Assembly: GCA_963762145.1 (NCBI GenBank) | Contig: CAVXJS010000021.1 | Coordinates: 512,001 to 576,000 of the forward strand | DNA length: 64,000 nucleotides | Direction of reading: 5' to 3' | Source: an uncultured Candidatus Rokubacteria bacterium | Lineage (GTDB): Bacteria > Methylomirabilota > Methylomirabilia > Rokubacteriales > CSP1-6 | Shown here: positions 30,403 to 37,520 of the stretch, piece after piece | Numbering within the stretch: position 1 is the first letter of the stretch | Layout: every line of letters starts with the position of its first letter | Notes under the pieces: generated by a model | Databases searched by the model: none | Told to the model about the DNA's origin: nothing | What the model saw: the letters and a program-made list of their open reading frames with translations, nothing else | Program-made: the position numbers and the translations under genes

Positions 30403-31851
30403 TCACTTGCTGATGGTGATCGGGACCCCCACCTGGGATACGTCCGTGACCGTCATGTGGAATCCCTGATACAGGATCCGGAAGGCGGTCCGGTCCCACA
30501 CGGTGCTCGTACCGGAGCCGCAGCGTCGCGTGCAGCCAGATCCGATCCCGCTTGGCGAAGTTCTCGATGTGCAGCGACGCGAACCGCCGTTCGGGATGGA
30601 GACCACCGTCCGGTCCAGCGTGCGGACTTGCGTCGATCGGAGCTCGATCCGCTCGACGGTGCCGAGCTGCTCGCCGAACCGGCAGAAGTCGCCCACCTGC
30701 ACCGGCTGGTCGGCGACCAGCGAGGCGCCCCCAAGAGGTGCTCGACGGTCTTCTGCGCGGCGAGCGCGAGAGCGATGCCGCCCACCCCGAGCCCCGCGAT
30801 GAGCGCGCTGACGTGCACGCCCATCGCCTCGAGCAGCGAGAAGAACCCGAGCAGGAGCACCAGGAGCTTCAGCGCCCGCTGGGCCAGACCGGCCACCGCG
30901 ATCTTCGCCTCGTGGCTCTGCCCTTCCACGAGCTTGTCGCCGCCCACGTCGACCAGGCGCAGGAGGAGCCACGTCACCCCGACGACCACGACCACCTCCT
31001 CGACCGTCACGAAGGCGTGATGCACGGCCACCGCGAGGCCGAGCAGGCGGCGCGTCACGTGGAACAGGGCCACCGCGATCAGCAGACGGATCGGAGCGCG
31101 CGCCGCCTCCAGGTCTGCAAGACGCCCGCCGGCTGACCGCGGGTGGAAAGCGCGCGGAAGAGCCACATGATCGGCATGACGAGGAGCGAGGCCACGAGGA
31201 GTGAGACGGGCACGAGACACAGCAGCGCGATCCACTGCCACAGCGCGATCTCGAGGAACGCGCACCTCGACGAACATCGGCGGGAGGCGATCTCCCACCG
31301 GCCCGTAGCCGATCTCCGCGTACAGCGCCGGGATCCGGGCCGAGGTTCCGGGGCCGATCTTCCAGATCGGCACGCCGTCCTCGCCCGGGACGCGGTCGAG
31401 GAAGAGGGTCACGCCGCCTCTCTTCGTCTCGATCCGGCCGATCACCTCGCGGCTGGGCGGCTGGCCGTCGTGGAGGAGGCCGTCCGGCTCATCGGAGAGC
31501 TCGGCGGGATCCACCGGCAAGGCCTGGTCCAGAACCACGCGCAGGTGGCGCGCCAGGATCGGTCCCTGCCTCGCCGCCTCGTCGGCCGGAAAGCGGCTCA
31601 GGTCGAGATACGCCGCCGCGCGCTCGTAGTCGCGGCGATCCGTGGCGGTGAGGAAGCCCCGGACGGTGCCGCGCGGGGTCGTGCGGCCGAACTCGTCCGG
31701 AGGCAGGATCCCGGGGCGCCTTCGGCGGCGCCGCGGCGACGGGGCCCGCGGGCCCCGGGGCACCCGGGGCCTGCGCGTGACCTCCGCCCGCCGCCGACAT
31801 CAGGATCCCGGCGGCCAGCAAGAGGATCCCCCACCGCCCTCGCGGTGACAT
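30403..31851 (-). pseudogene. mscS: MscS-family mechanosensitive channel, multiply frameshifted and C-terminally truncated
   Basis: Signal peptide and TPRGTVRGFL periplasmic domain; AGLGVGGIALALAAQ, DQPVQVGDFC, GTVERIELRST and IPNG in shifting frames (about 5 breaks). Confidence 0.8.
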
Positions 31852-31986
31852 CGGCGCCGAGACGCGTGATGCGACCAACCATCGGCAATTCCCCCAGGCG
31901 TCCTCGTGACCGCGGCCGAGGCGCGCTACCGTGAGGCGGTCGGAAACAGGTAGGCTCTTCGAGACTCCGCCCACCATACCGTCCGG

Positions 31987-32752
31987 TCATCCGGGCTGCA
32001 GGTCCTACAAGAGGCGGCAGGAGACTGCCGATGGAGCCGCGCAGGACGGCATCCGCCAGCGGGTCCATGTCGGTCGGCTCGGCATTGATGATGACGACGC
32101 GCGCGCCCGCGTGCCTGGCGACCGGGACCACCCCCGCGATCGGAAACACGGACAGCTTGGTGCCCACCGCGAGCATCAGGTCGCAGCGCGCGGCGGCCTG
32201 CTGGGCGCGCTCGAGGTCCTCGGCCACGAGCCCCTGACCGAAGGAGATCGTCGCGGACTTGAGGACGCCGCCGCACGATCGGCAGGGCGGATCGTCCTCC
32301 CCCGCGCGCACCCGGGCGAGCGCTCGCTCCATGGGCGCGCGCTCGCCGCAGTCCAGGCACACCACCTCGCGCATGGTCCCGTGGATCTCGACCACCCGGT
32401 CGGGCGAGGAGCCGGCGGCCTGATGGAGCCCGTCCACGTTCTGGGTGATGAGCGTGTCGAGCTTGCCCCGCCGCTCGAGCTCGACGAAGGCCCGGTGTCC
32501 CGCATTGGGCTCGGCCTTCCACACCGGTGAGTCGAGGCGGCTGCGCCAGGAGCGCTTGCGCACCTCGGAATCGGCCAGGTAGTTCTGCAGCGTGGCGAGC
32601 TTCTCCGCGCCGGGATCCCGGGTCCAGACGCCCTGCGGGCCGCGGAAGTCGGGGATGCCGGAGTCGGTGGAGATGCCGGCGCCGGTCAGGGCCACGATGC
32701 GCTCGGCCTCGTCGATCCAGGCCCGGACGTCGCGAGGAGTCGGCTCTGGCAT
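31987..32752 (-). CDS. cobB: Sir2/CobB NAD-dependent protein deacylase (ORF formally runs on to 31598; homology ends near 32010)
   Basis: GAGISTDSGIPDFRG, TQNVDGLHQ, HG, CxxC...CxxC and INAEPT; leaderless TGcTAGGCT box. Confidence 0.9.
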
Positions 32753-32788
32753 CCCGGGAGCCTAGCACGGCCCGGGCGGCGGACCGAG

Positions 32789-32837
32789 GCTCTGGATTTC
32801 AAAGTACTTGACACAATGAATCGAGCCACGCTATACG
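32789..32837 (+). promoter_or_regulatory. Sigma70-type promoter (TTGACA at 32808) with adjacent candidate operator GCTCTG-N5-CAAAGT
   Basis: TTGACA 32808-32813, TATACG 32832-32837, ATG at 32845; CAAAGTACTT shared with 33883-33892. Confidence 0.65.
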
Positions 32838-32844
32838 TGAATCG

Positions 32845-33450
32845 ATGACGTCTTCGAACCAGCCCCTCTCCGAATCCCCCGCGCTCCACGCCCGCGCGAT
32901 GGCCGATCTTCGCTTCATCCGGGAGACCATGGAGAACGTCTCCTCGTTCTCGGCGTTCTCCGGCTGGGGCTTGATCCTGATCGGCGTCATCGCGACCGCC
33001 TCCGGGATCCTGGCGGCGCGACAACCCACCCACCTGGGCTGGCTGACGGCGTGGGTGGCGGCCGCCGCCGTCTCGGCGCTGATCGGCGCGTTCTCCACCG
33101 CGCGGAAGACGCACGCCGCTCGTCAGCCGCTGATCCCGGGGCCGGCCAGCAAGTTCGCCCTGAGTCTCGCCCCCGCGGTCATCTCGGGGGCCCTTCTGAC
33201 GGGAGCCCTCGCGCGGGCCGAGCGCTTCGATCTCCTGCCGGGGACGTGGCTCCTGCTCTACGGAGCCGGGCTCGTCGCGGCCGGCGCCTGGTCGGTGCGG
33301 GTCGTCCCGATCATCGGCATCACGTTCATGAGTCTGGGCGCGGTGGGGTTGCTGCTGCCCCTCCCGTGGAGCAACTGGCTCCTGGTCGGCGGCTTCGGCG
33401 GTCTGCACGTCGCCTTCGGCGTGATCGTGGGGAGGAAGCACGGTGGCTGA
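32845..33450 (+). CDS. Integral membrane protein (about 6 TM) preceding a wHTH regulator
   Basis: ADLRFIRETME amphipathic start, WLLLYG and GFGGLHVAFG; 8-nt overlap with the regulator gene. Confidence 0.8.
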   Translation: MTSSNQPLSESPALHARAMADLRFIRETMENVSSFSAFSGWGLILIGVIATASGILAARQPTHLGWLTAWVAAAAVSALIGAFSTARKTHAARQPLIPGPASKFALSLAPAVISGALLTGALARAERFDLLPGTWLLLYGAGLVAAGAWSVRVVPIIGITFMSLGAVGLLLPLPWSNWLLVGGFGGLHVAFGVIVGRKHGG

Positions 33451-33844
33451 TTCGAGCGCGGCGCGACGGCAGCGATCGGAGGCTTCGGCGGGGCGGGCCT
33501 CGTCGCCGCGGGCCGCCGGCGGGCGCGGCACGCCGCGAGGGTCGGGGAGCCTCGACAACCTCGTCCATCACCGCATCCGTCTCGGCATCGTGAGCGCCCT
33601 CGCCGCCGCCGAATCGCTCACGTTCAACGAGATCAAGGCGCTCCTGGAGACGACGGACGGCAACCTGAGCGTGCACGCCCGCAAGCTCGAGGAAGCGGAG
33701 TACGTCACCTGCACCAAGACCTTCGACGGTCGGCGGCCGCGGACCGAGTACCGCCTCACCCCGGTCGGCCGCCGCGAGCTCACCCGGTACCTGACCCACA
33801 TGGAAGCGCTGATCCGGGCGACGCGGGACACGCTCAAGCGCTGA
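33443..33844 (+). CDS. Winged-helix transcriptional regulator (HTH_34/MarR-ArsR-like)
   Basis: HHRIRLGIVSAL, TDGNLSVHARKLEEAEYV and PRTEYRLTPVGR. Confidence 0.9.
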   Translation: MADSSAARRQRSEASAGRASSPRAAGGRGTPRGSGSLDNLVHHRIRLGIVSALAAAESLTFNEIKALLETTDGNLSVHARKLEEAEYVTCTKTFDGRRPRTEYRLTPVGRRELTRYLTHMEALIRATRDTLKR

Positions 33845-33871
33845 CGCGGAACCAAATTTTTTTGCCAGGAG

Positions 33872-33888
33872 ACTTTGACATGCAAAGT
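33872..33888. promoter_or_regulatory. Palindromic operator ACTTTG-ACATG-CAAAGT centred on the uppS start codon
   Basis: Perfect 6-bp inverted arms; AT-rich in a GC-rich genome; related copy at 32789. Confidence 0.7.
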
Positions 33889-34599
33889 ACTTCGCACCCT
33901 CGACACCCGGGACTCCACGTGGCCGTCATCATGGACGGCAACGGACGGTGGGCCCTCGACCGCGGGCTCCCGCGCGCGGCCGGACACCATGCGGGGGTCG
34001 ACGCGATCCGGCGGGTCGTCGAGGCCGCGCCCGGCGTCGGGATCGGCACCCTGACCCTGTTCGCCTTCTCCTCCGACAACTGGGCCCGGCCGGTGGAGGA
34101 GGTGCAGATCCTGATGGGGCTGTTCGAGCGGTTCCTGCGAGACGAAGCGGCACCGCTGCTCGCCCACGACGTGCGACTGTCCGTGATCGGGCGCCGGGAC
34201 CGGCTGCCCTCCAGGGTGGTCTCGGCGATCTCGGCCGCCGAGACGATCACGGCGCGAGCGAATCGCCTGCACCTCCGGGTCGCCGTCGACTACTCCTCGC
34301 GCGACGCGATCCTCGAGGCGGCCCGTCTCGGCCGGCTCGACCACCTGACGCGCGAGAGCTTCGCGCATCGACTCGGAGAGGCCCACGGCGCGCCCGCGCC
34401 CGACGTGGAGCTGCTGATCCGCACCGGCGGCGAGCAGCGCCTGAGCGACTTTCTCCTGTGGGAAAGCGCGTACGCCGAGTTCTTCTTCACGGCTCGCATG
34501 TGGCCCGACTTCCACGGGGACGACCTCGCGGCGGCCGTCGCCGAGTTCCGGACGCGGGACCGCCGCTTCGGCGCCCTGTCGGAATCGGGGAAGCGGTGA
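33880..34599 (+). CDS. uppS: cis-prenyltransferase (undecaprenyl diphosphate synthase paralogue)
   Basis: RBS AGGAG; HVAVIMDGNGRWA, GHHAG, FSSDNWARP, IRTGGEQRLSDFLLW, WPDF and RRFG. Confidence 0.92.
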   Translation: MQSTSHPRHPGLHVAVIMDGNGRWALDRGLPRAAGHHAGVDAIRRVVEAAPGVGIGTLTLFAFSSDNWARPVEEVQILMGLFERFLRDEAAPLLAHDVRLSVIGRRDRLPSRVVSAISAAETITARANRLHLRVAVDYSSRDAILEAARLGRLDHLTRESFAHRLGEAHGAPAPDVELLIRTGGEQRLSDFLLWESAYAEFFFTARMWPDFHGDDLAAAVAEFRTRDRRFGALSESGKR

Positions 34600-36086
34600 G
34601 CCTCATGGCACGCCCGCTCCTGCTGTGGTCCGTCGCGCTCGCGCTGGGAGGGCTCGGCACCGGCGTCCTGTTCGACGCGGCCCCCGGACTCAACTGGGGC
34701 GCGTGGACACTGGCCGTCGTCAGCGGCATCCTGCTCTGCGCCCGGGTGGCGCCCTCGCCGATGCGGGCCTCCCTCCTGCCGCTCGCCCTCGCGGTGGCCT
34801 TCGCGGCGGCGGCGGCCATCACCGTCGCGCCGGCCGCTCATGCCGTCATCGTCGGCGCGGTGGCCGTGCTCCTGGCGATCGCGGTGCTCCTGGCCGGCGA
34901 CTTGGGGTGGAAGCGGCTGACCGCGCCCTTCATGCTGTGGGCGCCCGCGGCGGCACCCCTCCTGGTGCTCGCGGAGGCGATCCGACGCGCCCACGAGATG
35001 ATCGGGCTCGTCGCGACGCCTCGCTACCGGCCGCTCTGCCGGGGCGCGCTCCTGGCGCTTCCGGTGGTGGGCCTGTTCACGCTGATCCTCGCCAACGCCG
35101 ATCCCGTGCTCGCCACCCTGCGCGATGGCCTGACCGAGGCGCTGGCCCGCCTGGAATTCGTGCCCCGGCTCATGTTCTGGGGCGCCCTCTTCGCCCTTGC
35201 CCTGGGAGGCGGCGGGATCGTCATGCGCCGGGCGAGCGTCCCGGCTCCGGCGTTCGTGGAGCCGGCTCCGGCCCCGCGCCTCGCCGACACCGAGCGCCTC
35301 GTCGTGCTCGGCGCGGTCGGCACCCTCTTCGCCGCGTTCCTCCTCCTGCAGCTGAGCTACCTGTTCGGCAACGCCCCGGTCGTCGCGGGATCGGGCGTGA
35401 CGTTCTCGGAATACGCCCGCCGGGGATTCGCCGAGCTGAGCACGGTGGCGACCCTCTGCACGATTTTGCTGGTGACCCTCGAGCACTGGGCCGCGCGCGG
35501 CCCGCGCGAGCGGTGGGCGCGCCTCCTGGCCATCGCGGTCGTCGTCGAGGTCGAGATCCTCCTGATCTCGGCGCTCCGCCGCCTCTGGCTCTACGAGTCC
35601 GCCTACGGGTTCACGACCGCGCGGCTCTACGCCCACGTCTACATGGTCGGGGTCGCGCTCTTCCTCGGGCTGCTCGGCTGGCGGCTGTCCCGCGGCTTGA
35701 AGGCGGGGTGGCTCGCGCGGCGCGCGGCCGCGATCGCCGCCGTCGCGATGATCGTGCTGATCTACTGGAACCACGAAGCGTGGATCGTCCGTCAGAACGC
35801 GGGACGCTTCCTCCGGACCGGACAGCTCGACACCGCGTATCTGGTCTGGGGGCTCTCGCCGAACGCGGCGCCGGCCCTGGTCCGGACGATGCCTCAGCTA
35901 TCGCCCGCCCAGGCCGACGCGGTGCGCGTCGGGCTTCGGCAGCGCTACGGACAGGTCGCCCGCGGCGCTTCGTGCCGCTGGTTCGAGTGGAATCGCGGCC
36001 GGAGCCGCGCGGTGGCCGCGCTCCGGGCGGCGGGGATCGTGGAAGGAGACGTCCAGCTCCATCCTCGCGATTGCGTCGCGCGGTGA
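34596..36086 (+). CDS. DUF4153/DUF4173-family multi-pass membrane protein
   Basis: GTGA coupling to uppS; LANADPV, QLSYLFG, FSEYARRGFAEL and RRLWLYESAYGFTTARL. Confidence 0.8.
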   Translation: MSLMARPLLLWSVALALGGLGTGVLFDAAPGLNWGAWTLAVVSGILLCARVAPSPMRASLLPLALAVAFAAAAAITVAPAAHAVIVGAVAVLLAIAVLLAGDLGWKRLTAPFMLWAPAAAPLLVLAEAIRRAHEMIGLVATPRYRPLCRGALLALPVVGLFTLILANADPVLATLRDGLTEALARLEFVPRLMFWGALFALALGGGGIVMRRASVPAPAFVEPAPAPRLADTERLVVLGAVGTLFAAFLLLQLSYLFGNAPVVAGSGVTFSEYARRGFAELSTVATLCTILLVTLEHWAARGPRERWARLLAIAVVVEVEILLISALRRLWLYESAYGFTTARLYAHVYMVGVALFLGLLGWRLSRGLKAGWLARRAAAIAAVAMIVLIYWNHEAWIVRQNAGRFLRTGQLDTAYLVWGLSPNAAPALVRTMPQLSPAQADAVRVGLRQRYGQVARGASCRWFEWNRGRSRAVAALRAAGIVEGDVQLHPRDCVAR

Positions 36087-36092
36087 CGGGGC

Positions 36093-37520
36093 CTAGCGCC
36101 CGCCGCCCAGGACCTTGACCAGGCGGTACAGGAACTCGTGGCCGCCGTACAGCGACTGCACCGGCATCCGCTCGTTGAGCCCGTGCGACCGCGCGTCGTC
36201 GGGACCCAGGAAGAGGCCGGACACGCCGTAGGCGGGAATGCCCGCGTTGCGGAGGAAGCGCGAATCGGTCGCGCCGGTGCTCATGGTGGGGATCACCGGA
36301 ATGCCCGGCCACAGCGCGGTGGTCGTGGCCTCGACCGCCTGCATCAGGTCGGGACGCAGCGACGACGGCTGGCTCAGCTCCGGCTCGGTCATCTGGGTCA
36401 CCGTGATGCCCGGATCGCCCAGGGCCTTCACGATCTCCTCCCGTACGCGGTCGATCGGCTCCCCCGGGAGGACGCGGCAGTTCACGACCGCGCGCGCGGT
36501 CTGGGGCAGCGCGTTGCTCGCGTGGCCGCCCTCGAGGCGCGTGGCCACGCAGGTCGTCCGCATGATCGAGTTGTAGAACGCGTGGACGGCCGAGAGGCGG
36601 GCGGCGGCCTGCGGGTCGGGCGCGCCGTCCTTCGCGACCGCGCGCATGTCGTCGGCCACCGCGCCGGCGTGGAGCGGCGCGCTCCGCTGGAAATAGCCGC
36701 GGGTGATCTCGTTCAGCCTGGCCGGGAACTCGTGGCGCGCGAAGCGCGCGAGCCCTTCCGCGAGCTGATAGATCGCGTTGTCCTTGCGTGGCATCGAGCT
36801 GTGGCCGCCCGGGTTCTTGCTCTCGAGACGGAAGCTCACGGTCACCTTCTCGGCCGCCTGCACGCGGAGCAGCACCGGGCGCCCATCGCGCGTCATCTCG
36901 GCGCCGCCGCCCTCGTTGAGCGCGAGCTCCGCCTCGATCAGGGGGCGGTGGTGCTTGAGGAGCCAGCTCACCCCGTTCCACGGCGAGCGGAGCTCCTCGT
37001 CCGCGGTCAGGGCCAGGATCAGGTCGCGCTCCGGCGCGTAGCCTTCCTTCTTGTAGCGGATCAGGTTGGCCACGAAGATCGCGGCCATCGCCTTGTCGTC
37101 CACCGAGCCGCGCGCGTAGAAGTACCCGTCTTCCTCGACCAGCTTGAACGGATCGCGCTCCCAGTCCTCGCGCCTGGCCTCGACCACGTCGAGATGGGCG
37201 AGCAGGAGCAGCGGTTTCTTCGCCCCGGTCCCCTTGAGCCGCGCCACCAGGTTGCCCTTCCGCGGCGCGCCGGGCGGAACGATGATCTGCAGCTCGGCAT
37301 CTGAAAAGCCACCGGCCTTGAGCCGGGCCGCCATCGCCCGGGCGGCGGCCGTGTTGTCGCCCACCGAGTCGGTGGTGTTGATCTCCACCAGCTCCTTGTA
37401 GATCTCGCGCAGGCGTGTCTGGTCCGGCGTGGGGGGGCCGGGGGGCGGCAGCTGCGCGTGAGCCGTCGCCGGCCACGCGGACAAGAGCAGCGCCAGGACC
37501 AGACCGGAGCCGGGTCTCAT
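36093..37520 (-). CDS. Secreted M20/M25/M40 metallopeptidase
   Basis: Signal peptide; LAHLDVV, RGSVDDK, ADEE, NEGG, GGHSS, GATD and SHGLNE. Confidence 0.92.
   Translation of the reverse strand: MRPGSGLVLALLLSAWPATAHAQLPPPGPPTPDQTRLREIYKELVEINTTDSVGDNTAAARAMAARLKAGGFSDAELQIIVPPGAPRKGNLVARLKGTGAKKPLLLLAHLDVVEARREDWERDPFKLVEEDGYFYARGSVDDKAMAAIFVANLIRYKKEGYAPERDLILALTADEELRSPWNGVSWLLKHHRPLIEAELALNEGGGAEMTRDGRPVLLRVQAAEKVTVSFRLESKNPGGHSSMPRKDNAIYQLAEGLARFARHEFPARLNEITRGYFQRSAPLHAGAVADDMRAVAKDGAPDPQAAARLSAVHAFYNSIMRTTCVATRLEGGHASNALPQTARAVVNCRVLPGEPIDRVREEIVKALGDPGITVTQMTEPELSQPSSLRPDLMQAVEATTTALWPGIPVIPTMSTGATDSRFLRNAGIPAYGVSGLFLGPDDARSHGLNERMPVQSLYGGHEFLYRLVKVLGGGR

Follow-up and report, generated by a model that had tools for sequence, protein, structure and literature searches.

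A membrane-protein/HTH_34 cassette with two putative operators precedes a second undecaprenyl-type diphosphate synthase gene in a Rokubacteria genome and recurs in other soil phyla

The pool of undecaprenyl phosphate limits the synthesis of cell wall, teichoic acid, O-antigen and capsule, and the control of its size is poorly understood. Stress systems of the lipid II cycle (sigma-M/bcrC, LiaFSR and BceRS) adjust envelope genes through a membrane-located sensor, and the BlaI/BlaR1 and MecI/MecR1 systems join a membrane sensor to a winged-helix repressor whose palindromic operator overlaps the promoter. None of these is known to us to control uppS itself, the gene for undecaprenyl diphosphate synthase (UppS), and we know of no dedicated transcriptional regulator of that gene. 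Here we analyze a four-gene operon in a 64,000-nucleotide (nt) stretch of DNA (the window; contig CAVXJS010000021.1, positions 512,001 to 576,000, assembly GCA_963762145.1) from an uncultured Candidatus Rokubacteria bacterium of the phylum Methylomirabilota, in which a membrane protein (MEMB) and a winged-helix protein of the HTH_34 family precede a second synthase (UppS2) and a DUF4153 membrane protein. The reading that we favor, to which we give a probability of roughly 0.55, is that a self-contained regulatory cassette consisting of MEMB, HTH_34 and two putative operators, O1 and O2, drives a conditional second undecaprenyl-type diphosphate synthase. Unlike the Bla/Mec, sigma-M/bcrC, LiaFSR and BceRS systems, this cassette has a membrane protein without a protease, kinase or sigma-factor domain.

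A parallel is found in Bacillus subtilis, where, according to PMC2910880, the membrane protein SdpI sequesters the ArsR-type autorepressor SdpR. The window likewise encodes, as judged from the genes alone, a small ArsR-type winged helix beside a protein of about 200 residues with six transmembrane (TM) helices in one operon. However, MEMB lies outside the SdpI family (0 of 86 members), its gene comes first, and the cassette has extra cargo genes and a second operator and lacks a toxin partner. Among solved structures the closest relative of the HTH_34 protein, also an ArsR/SmtB-like winged helix, is PH1061 of Pyrococcus horikoshii (1ub9), from which the window protein differs by some 35 Arg-rich residues that form a tail at its N terminus; we know of no function or operator for PH1061. 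UppS2 shares the fold family (PF01255) and the unchanged catalytic and tunnel-floor residues of housekeeping synthases such as Escherichia coli UPPS, but it falls in a separate clade (NF011412), is never found in the frr-cdsA cluster and stands behind a dedicated regulator cassette. Within the texts covered by a full-text literature search, which take in few subscription journals, no dedicated uppS repressor or operator and no UppS2 paralog were found, DUF4153 was mentioned in two papers without any functional account, and nothing was found on HTH_34 as a family. The kinds of component (UppS, an ArsR-like winged helix, a membrane partner) are known; no earlier description seems to exist of the cassette and its operator, of the UppS clade linked to it or of the conditional second gate.

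The features of the operon, in window coordinates, are the following.

32789-32813, forward strand: putative operator O1, GCTCTG-N5-CAAAGT-AC running into the -35 box TTGACA (from sequence)
32832-32847, forward strand: -10-like TATACG (32832-32837) and the ATG of MEMB (from sequence)
32845-33450, forward strand: MEMB, a membrane protein of 201 residues with no match in Pfam or NCBIfam
33443-33844, forward strand: HTH_34 winged-helix protein of 133 residues with a GTG start (PF13601, E 4.6e-27)
33857-33892, forward strand: putative operator O2, T7, AGGAG and ACTTTG-ACATG-CAAAGT-ACTT (from sequence)
33880-34599, forward strand: UppS2, a cis-prenyltransferase of 239 residues, NF011412 clade (PF01255, E 1e-69)
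34605-36086, forward strand: DUF4153 polytopic membrane protein of 493 residues (PF13687, E 1e-53)

The four genes lie head to tail in the order MEMB, HTH_34, UppS2 and DUF4153. The GTG start of HTH_34 overlaps the MEMB stop by 8 nt, the uppS2 ATG at 33880 has AGGAG (33867-33871) 8 nt upstream, and the DUF4153 open reading frame (ORF) begins 5 nt past the uppS2 stop, with an alternative GTG at 34596 that overlaps this stop. The first box (GCTCTG-N5-CAAAGT, 32789-32805) leads into TTGACA (32808-32813), which is followed after an 18-nt spacer by TATACG (32832-32837) and, 7 nt beyond, by the MEMB ATG; the second box (ACTTTG-N5-CAAAGT, 33872-33888) is centered on the uppS2 ATG and preceded by a run of seven T residues (33857-33863). 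The initial annotation had interpreted the locus as an undecaprenyl-phosphate stress module and had described four co-oriented genes, both boxes and the UppS2 motifs FSSDNW and DYSSR, all of which are present. It had also remarked on the absence of frr, cdsA and dxr, and indeed this uppS has none of these housekeeping neighbors but lies with its operon between a divergent SIR2 gene upstream and a convergent M20 peptidase gene downstream.

How far does this arrangement extend? An alignment-based search of species genomes for MEMB returned at least 599 pattern matches, at least 575 of which were confirmed. Counts over 80 given here refer to the best 80 of these confirmed loci, which come mainly from Acidobacteriota (Pyrinomonadaceae, Blastocatellia and Bryobacterales), Gemmatimonadota and Methylomirabilota. 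The HTH_34 gene directly follows MEMB at 79 of the 80 loci, the 80th being cut by a contig end, and the two genes usually overlap. UppS2 comes after the cassette at 32 of 80 loci, and DUF4153 was detected at 15, once without UppS2. Among 151 sampled Methylomirabilota genomes, seven score above the NF011412 cut-off and one more reaches 332 bits; the carriers of UppS2 belong to one family and several genera, and seven other genomes sampled from the window's genus all lack it. The MEMB profile matches 11 of the 151 genomes, namely the eight with UppS2 and three fragmentary cases (both tallies include the unpublished genomes G101, G058, G029 and G047, on which alone no claim is made). In every one of the seven other genomes of the phylum with the paralog the order MEMB-HTH_34-UppS2 is retained, DUF4153 being next in three of them, and this synteny is conserved in other phyla as well. 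The conserved unit is the MEMB/HTH_34 cassette with two operators and not a four-gene undecaprenyl-phosphate module: of that earlier proposal the order of cassette and UppS endures, but UppS is present at only 32 of 80 loci and DUF4153 at 15, and the other cargo is unrelated to them. An UppS clade that invariably stands behind one conserved regulator pair and operator spans three abundant soil phyla. Cassette loci were also encountered on contigs of metagenome-assembled genomes with labels from outside these phyla (locus L044, Thermoleophilaceae; L106, Gammaproteobacteria; L051 and L058, Heliomicrobium); the 76-84% identity of L044 to the window proteins suggests mis-binning rather than gene transfer.

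The two boxes share the exact 10-mer CAAAGTACTT, which has only two copies in the whole 6,261,721-base, 70% G+C genome, both at the operon locus. Allowing one mismatch, five matches are found in the window against 0.17 expected, and the exact two are the O1 and O2 boxes; this enrichment, together with the genome-wide uniqueness, argues that the shared 10-mer is not a product of chance. The 17-mer palindrome with up to three mismatches gives four matches in the window against 3.6 expected and is thus not enriched by itself. The core of O1 is CTTTG-N5-CAAAGTAC, adjoining the -35 box TTGACA, and its half-sites, h1 and h2, are separated by 10 bp from center to center, a spacing that would fit a winged-helix dimer on one face of the DNA. 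Across loci the consensus of O1 is g.CTTTgc.t..cAAAGTACTTGACa and that of O2 is TTTTTTTGc-N6-aCTTTgcga.gCAAAG.gCTTtg, with O2 lying 8-9 nt downstream of the conserved T tract. The palindrome first proposed for the boxes, ACTTTG-N5-CAAAGT, is real, but it is better described as CTTTG-N5-CAAAG with a third element, CTT(T)G, the second site having a T tract in addition.

In this composite form, with up to two mismatches, the O1 motif stands upstream of MEMB at 84 of 86 testable loci and the O2 motif is found at 70 of 84 (31 of the 38 UppS2 loci), so that the conservation sought for the boxes extends across phyla. A T run of at least five is present at 66 of 84 loci, and in 21 of these 66 a crude hairpin search places a stem immediately 5' of it. 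All eight loci of the window's phylum have O1 as (A/G)C(T/C)(T/C)T(G/C)-N5-(C/T)AAAG(T/C)(A/T)(C/A)TTGAC(A/G) 5' of MEMB, and O2 as a run of seven or eight T, a ribosome-binding site and ACTT(T/C)-N7-(A/C)AAG(T/C) on the uppS2 start. The register of the uppS2 ATG varies against the fixed O2 motif at these eight loci, and therefore selection appears to act on the nucleotides and not on the encoded peptide. A strict CTTT-N7-AAAG has 128 matches in the 834,804 nt of the 80 loci, 120 of which lie at O1 or O2 positions. Taken together, the boxes are best viewed as a conserved cross-phylum operator that is presumably bound by HTH_34.

Three of the eight off-position CTTT-N7-AAAG matches are units of T run and palindrome before downstream genes. 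Such additional O2-type units occur 3.5-4 kb 3' of the cassette at L045:10510-10540, L047:10950-11000 and L118:8300-8350, and the one in L045 sits on the start of an uppS2 that is 3.5 kb from the regulator; O2-type units at further genes suggest small local regulons. At L047, L051, L058, L088 and L118 a variant first operator, (A/C)AAGTACTTGTCA, lies 5' of MEMB with an additional CTTGTCA-type repeat upstream, and this variant goes with YjbQ/UPF0047 and MacB/FtsX cargo and not with UppS2.

Is UppS2 a functional synthase, and is it a second one? Its profile scores are 234.9 bits for PF01255 (cut-off 27), 352.9 for NF011412 (334) and 219.8 for the uppS family TIGR00055 (109.55), and the motifs FSSDNW and DYSSR can be read directly from the sequence. 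Aligned with E. coli UPPS (PDB 1jp3/5cqb; 183 bits, about equal length), UppS2 is identical at D26, R30, H43, F70, S71, N74, W75, R77 and L137 and also keeps R194, E198, R200, S202 and the C-terminal RRFG (E. coli numbering, counted by hand on the alignment); of these, we take D26, R30, H43, S71, N74, W75, R77, R194, E198, R200 and S202 to serve in catalysis or substrate binding. Five positions are fixed differently from both the housekeeping enzymes and E. coli: E73D, N144D, G146S, N203D and Q208E. In a non-redundant set of 38 UppS2 sequences drawn from the window, loci of its phylum and other phyla, DYS[ASG]R is present in all 38 and FS[SA]DNW in nearly all, whereas FS[ST]ENW occurs in 27 of 27 housekeeping sequences and NYGGR in most, the two groups being defined for these counts by the DYS motif itself. 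The SDNW and DYS motifs that had drawn attention to this gene are thus clade-defining. In a maximum-likelihood tree of 64 rows (one truncated sequence and the duplicates L006-L013 left out), 37 module-linked UppS2 and 27 housekeeping sequences are split by a 100/100 branch, and the Methylomirabilota copies of UppS2 form a supported subclade (95/90). By its sequence UppS2 looks like an intact, active enzyme of a distinct clade. It had been considered that this might be the genome's only uppS; the second PF01255 gene, however, is a canonical uppS (FSSENW/NYGGR) on contig C11 within the cluster argJ-rpsB-tsf-frr-uppS-cdsA-dxr-rseP-proS-nusA.

The situation in Gemmatimonadota is different. Of 81 sampled genomes, 31 encode a full-length UppS2-type protein that scores 284 bits or more (one of them, G212, is an unpublished genome and supports no claim alone), and 12 further genomes have a shorter or split UppS2-type gene. 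Fifteen genomes are above the family cut-off, namely 13 of the 31 and two with short or split copies by summed pieces. No second match at E ≤ 1e-60 was found in 14 of the 31, and re-testing of five of these (G191, G202, G207, G221 and G232) with PF01255 at E ≤ 0.001 revealed a single cis-prenyltransferase in each, in the order MEMB-HTH_34-UppS2 and with the motifs FS[AS]DNW and DYSAR. In G191 and G202 the cluster runs from tsf-pyrH-frr straight into cdsA, which begins 3 nt past the frr stop with no uppS between; the remaining two frr loci inspected are less clear. UppS2 is likewise the only PF01255 match in the genomes of L046, L068, L089, L110 and L099. Because it is the sole cis-prenyltransferase found in several genomes, the clade is taken to be a genuine carrier-lipid synthase, and the earlier description of a backup uppS, while valid for the window genome, does not apply to at least ten Gemmatimonadota genomes. 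The retained L137 and the sole PF01255 match in ten genomes bear indirectly on a C55 (or C50) product. A short UppS2 variant of 204-217 residues, lacking about 30 residues at roughly Pfam positions 130-160, is seen in Gemmatimonadales (L064, L087, L089, L096, L109, L110, L119 and L121) and is the only cis-prenyltransferase found in the L089 and L110 genomes.

Copy number and O2 go together. All ten sole-copy loci keep O1 and have neither T run nor O2, and all 19 genomes with a T run and O2 on uppS2 (eight Methylomirabilota and those of L087, L093, L100, L064, L096, L119, L121, L071, L103, L107 and L115) have a second PF01255 match, a grouping that was made after the data had been seen. L105 has a degenerate O2, no T run and another copy. 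Sole-copy loci occupy at least three places on the UppS2 tree; L119, which has O2, groups for instance as sister to L110 and L089, which lack it.

How might the cassette operate? An HTH_34 dimer would bind O1 and repress its own operon. HTH_34 at O2 may form a second gate that holds the non-essential uppS2 and DUF4153 off. This gate could be a loop to O1 or, as we propose, a roadblock: an RNA polymerase that runs into protein bound at O2 would halt with its active site roughly over the U tract, where the roadblock would assist transcript release. The co-translated six-TM MEMB would set the level of free repressor in the way that SdpI sequesters SdpR, in response to a membrane signal, which might be envelope damage or the state of the carrier pool of polyprenyl phosphate. 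Induction would add carrier-lipid synthesis to that of the housekeeping uppS, and DUF4153 would be a co-induced membrane protein that probably uses or handles the UppS2 product. Repression is favored because the operator abuts or overlaps a near-consensus -35 box, the layout is autoregulatory and O2 is lost where the enzyme must be made. The rationale for MEMB as the signal input is its analogy with SdpI, its inseparability from the regulator, translational coupling and the conserved cytoplasmic N-terminal helix. The system offers an entry point in the form of a defined operator, a small putative repressor, a membrane partner that belongs to a new family and natural variants with and without the second gate.

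Several observations weigh against a repressor-gated conditional second synthase, and some of them bring an alternative explanation with them. The center of the h1-h2 palindrome is about 46 nt upstream of the predicted transcription start, a position that suits an activator as well. One may therefore suppose that HTH_34 recruits RNA polymerase at the palindrome and that O2 and its T tract constitute an activator-dependent internal promoter for the cargo. The palindrome does lie upstream of the -35 box and not over the -10 box or the start, the T tract could be an UP-like element, and units of T run and palindrome travel with cargo genes. However, the -35 box at O1 is a near-invariant consensus TTGACA, which typifies promoters under repression and not those that depend on an activator, this box is overlapped by the third element CTT(T)G, and at O2 the T run lies too close to the ribosome-binding site to leave space for a -35 and a -10 box; inspection of O2 by eye for an internal sigma-70 promoter gave no convincing one. 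An activator would also leave it odd that O2 is gone exactly where uppS2 must be expressed, as in 10 of 10 sole-copy genomes, and we regard this explanation as improbable.

The T run poses a second difficulty, as that of the window has no terminator hairpin and the RNA there folds no more stably than its shuffles (z -0.36). A classical terminator was considered and rejected as a general explanation of the T run, with a hairpin at 21 of 66 loci and none in the window. Could O2 instead act as RNA, its palindrome and a GGAG/CUUC pairing hiding the Shine-Dalgarno sequence and AUG of uppS2 in a translational control independent of the winged helix? The minimum-energy fold does pair GGAGACUUUG with CAAAGUaCUUC and leaves the AUG in the loop, but 72 of 200 shuffles reach the same or a greater stability. 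Moreover, the same motif is found at O1 upstream of the promoter, where it is untranscribed, and loci without UppS2 have O2 tens of bases before the ribosome-binding site of the cargo, so we consider control by RNA structure very unlikely.

The five clade-specific substitutions in UppS2 also count against our reading insofar as they may bear on the product. UppS2 and DUF4153 could form a specialized pathway, in which a polyprenyl diphosphate of another length or use supplies a dedicated glycan or lipid processed by DUF4153. Consistent with this, the substitutions fall in conserved motifs, DUF4153 recurs beside UppS2, and alternative cargo includes B12 radical-SAM proteins and a TIGR02032-like protein (132.8 bits, under the 158.8 cut-off). 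Against it, UppS2 is the only cis-prenyltransferase found in 10 genomes and must supply the general carrier there, L137 and the other tunnel and catalytic positions are as in E. coli UPPS, and four of seven loci of the phylum have no DUF4153; a dedicated pathway therefore seems rather improbable. The DUF4153 protein itself, encoded by a single-copy gene, matches PF13687 at 183.3 bits (cut-off 27) over profile positions 2-372 of 373. Its AlphaFold2 (AF2) model is all-helical with a predicted local distance difference test score (pLDDT) of 81.7; Foldseek found no match to the full-length model at E ≤ 0.001, and the best hits of a wide VIA-align search (Z 7.5) were designed helical bundles, which is within noise for helical models.

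The link between O2 and copy number has its own exceptions, as L112 and L116 are without O2 and yet another cis-prenyltransferase is present in each, and since the genomes share ancestry and come without completeness values, the link is not a statistical test. In addition, the housekeeping uppS of the window genome is split by a frameshift in the assembly (at about L005:7620, where L005 is contig C11:465000-481000). Its neighbors are also broken: ORFs cover the EF-Ts and RRF domains only in part, the CdsA and Dxr domains share one ORF, and so do the Dxr and RseP domains. Since essential neighbors are split alike, the break is read as an assembly indel, and the frame breaks of the region are most likely of this kind, although the canonical uppS may be a real pseudogene.

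MEMB consists of an N-terminal amphipathic helix and six TM helices (AF2 model: pLDDT 88.9, predicted template modeling score 0.79). Among 86 members no convincing Pfam match was found, SdpI being absent from all 86 even at E ≤ 1; a Foldseek search of the PDB with the model found nothing at E ≤ 0.001, and the ESM Atlas yielded only unnamed membrane-protein clusters. The cytoplasmic N-terminal helix is its most conserved stretch, and at the eight loci of the phylum L14, H15, R17, A18, D21-R26 and T28-E30 are invariant. A complex prediction of MEMB with HTH_34, run without controls, scored 0.29 and 0.26 against a mark of 0.32, values that weigh neither for nor against a contact. That MEMB resembles no known sensor is a further point against the favored reading, and the protein may act as an effector instead.

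In that case MEMB, perhaps a transporter or an immunity protein, would be the operon's first effector, and HTH_34 would sense the signal directly, like many ArsR-type metal or redox sensors. HTH_34 has near-invariant H42, H78, C90 and H119, and its similarity to the ArsR family extends to HTH_5 (E 1.7e-6). The protein matches PF13601 at 94.4 bits (cut-off 27) over all 80 profile positions (1-80), falls below the cut-off of 55 bits for the ArsR/SmtB metalloregulator family NF033788 with a score of 26, and has 1ub9 (PH1061) as its closest solved structure (E 3.2e-9, profile positions 37-122). Direct sensing by HTH_34 is harder to reconcile with the adjacency of MEMB and HTH_34 at 79 of 80 loci despite varying cargo, with the overlap of the two genes at most of them and with the placement of the strongest MEMB conservation in the cytoplasmic helix; on balance it is a possible but somewhat unlikely explanation. 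Residues 1-36 of HTH_34 (33443-33550) form a poorly conserved, Arg-rich tail with a conserved MA(E/D)...ARR at its start, and it is pure speculation that this tail is a minor-groove arm for the T tract or a contact for MEMB.

A final point against the favored reading is the cargo, which is UppS at only 32 of 80 loci. In Pyrinomonadaceae the first cargo gene encodes a membrane-anchored protein of 228 residues without a Pfam or NCBIfam family, bearing the motifs EKHFCEIDCHLAYS and GHENS; it is seen at L048:7050-7736, L060:7031-7717 and 12 more loci, with EKHFCE.DCHLAYS and GHENS invariant. Behind it come an FAD enzyme, for which NCBIfam gives TIGR02032 (the geranylgeranyl-reductase family) as the top match, and a CreD-like protein. 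MacB/FtsX permeases are also among the Pyrinomonadaceae cargo, and B12 radical-SAM proteins and YjbQ/UPF0047 are recurrent too. These lists are incomplete, as only ORFs of the operon strand were sent to Pfam and ORF calling chose antisense ORFs at several high-GC loci. Given such varied cargo, the signal need not concern the lipid carrier, and the variety is at least as suggestive of a general membrane or envelope cue as it is of carrier status. If the signal is unrelated to the carrier, the cassette is a widespread but ordinary autoregulated envelope operon. The most far-reaching form of our proposal is that MEMB/HTH_34 is a polyprenyl-phosphate carrier homeostat across phyla, in which MEMB would gauge free carrier (or envelope damage) and titrate the repressor, setting the only uppS in many Gemmatimonadota, while in the window's organism and its relatives a portable, hairpin-free gate of T tract and operator would terminate transcription once repressor occupies it and silence the second uppS until needed; this wider version is doubtful.

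The start of the operon has further distinctive features. A strict scan of 32400-36400 for sigma-70 promoters and terminators found none; the operon promoter escapes it since position 6 of the -10 box is not T. At 69 of the 71 loci with AAAGTACTTGAC (up to one mismatch) an in-frame MEMB start lies 28-45 nt from the first base of the -35 box, most often 35-37 nt from it (47 of those 69). The MEMB start codon therefore falls at the expected transcription start, implying, as far as sequence can indicate, that the operon mRNA is leaderless or nearly so. Parts of the window are contained in 20 public soil or rhizosphere runs from 11 studies; those labeled as RNA provide contigs only, mostly of relatives at 90-95% identity. 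One RNA-library contig of 244 nt (X20) covers the uppS2/DUF4153 junction with zero differences and another contig (X17) covers the end of HTH_34, O2 and the start of uppS2, each too weak for a claim of co-transcription. Upstream of the operon on the reverse strand, a 384-residue ORF (31598-32752) has its SIR2 domain at residues 24-204 only, and the other 180 residues are rich in Arg, Pro and Gly and may be read-through or a frame error. Beyond it, also on the reverse strand (30403-31763), two overlapping ORFs resemble one gene for a small-conductance mechanosensitive channel with a frameshift near 30950, the family being read from the translation.

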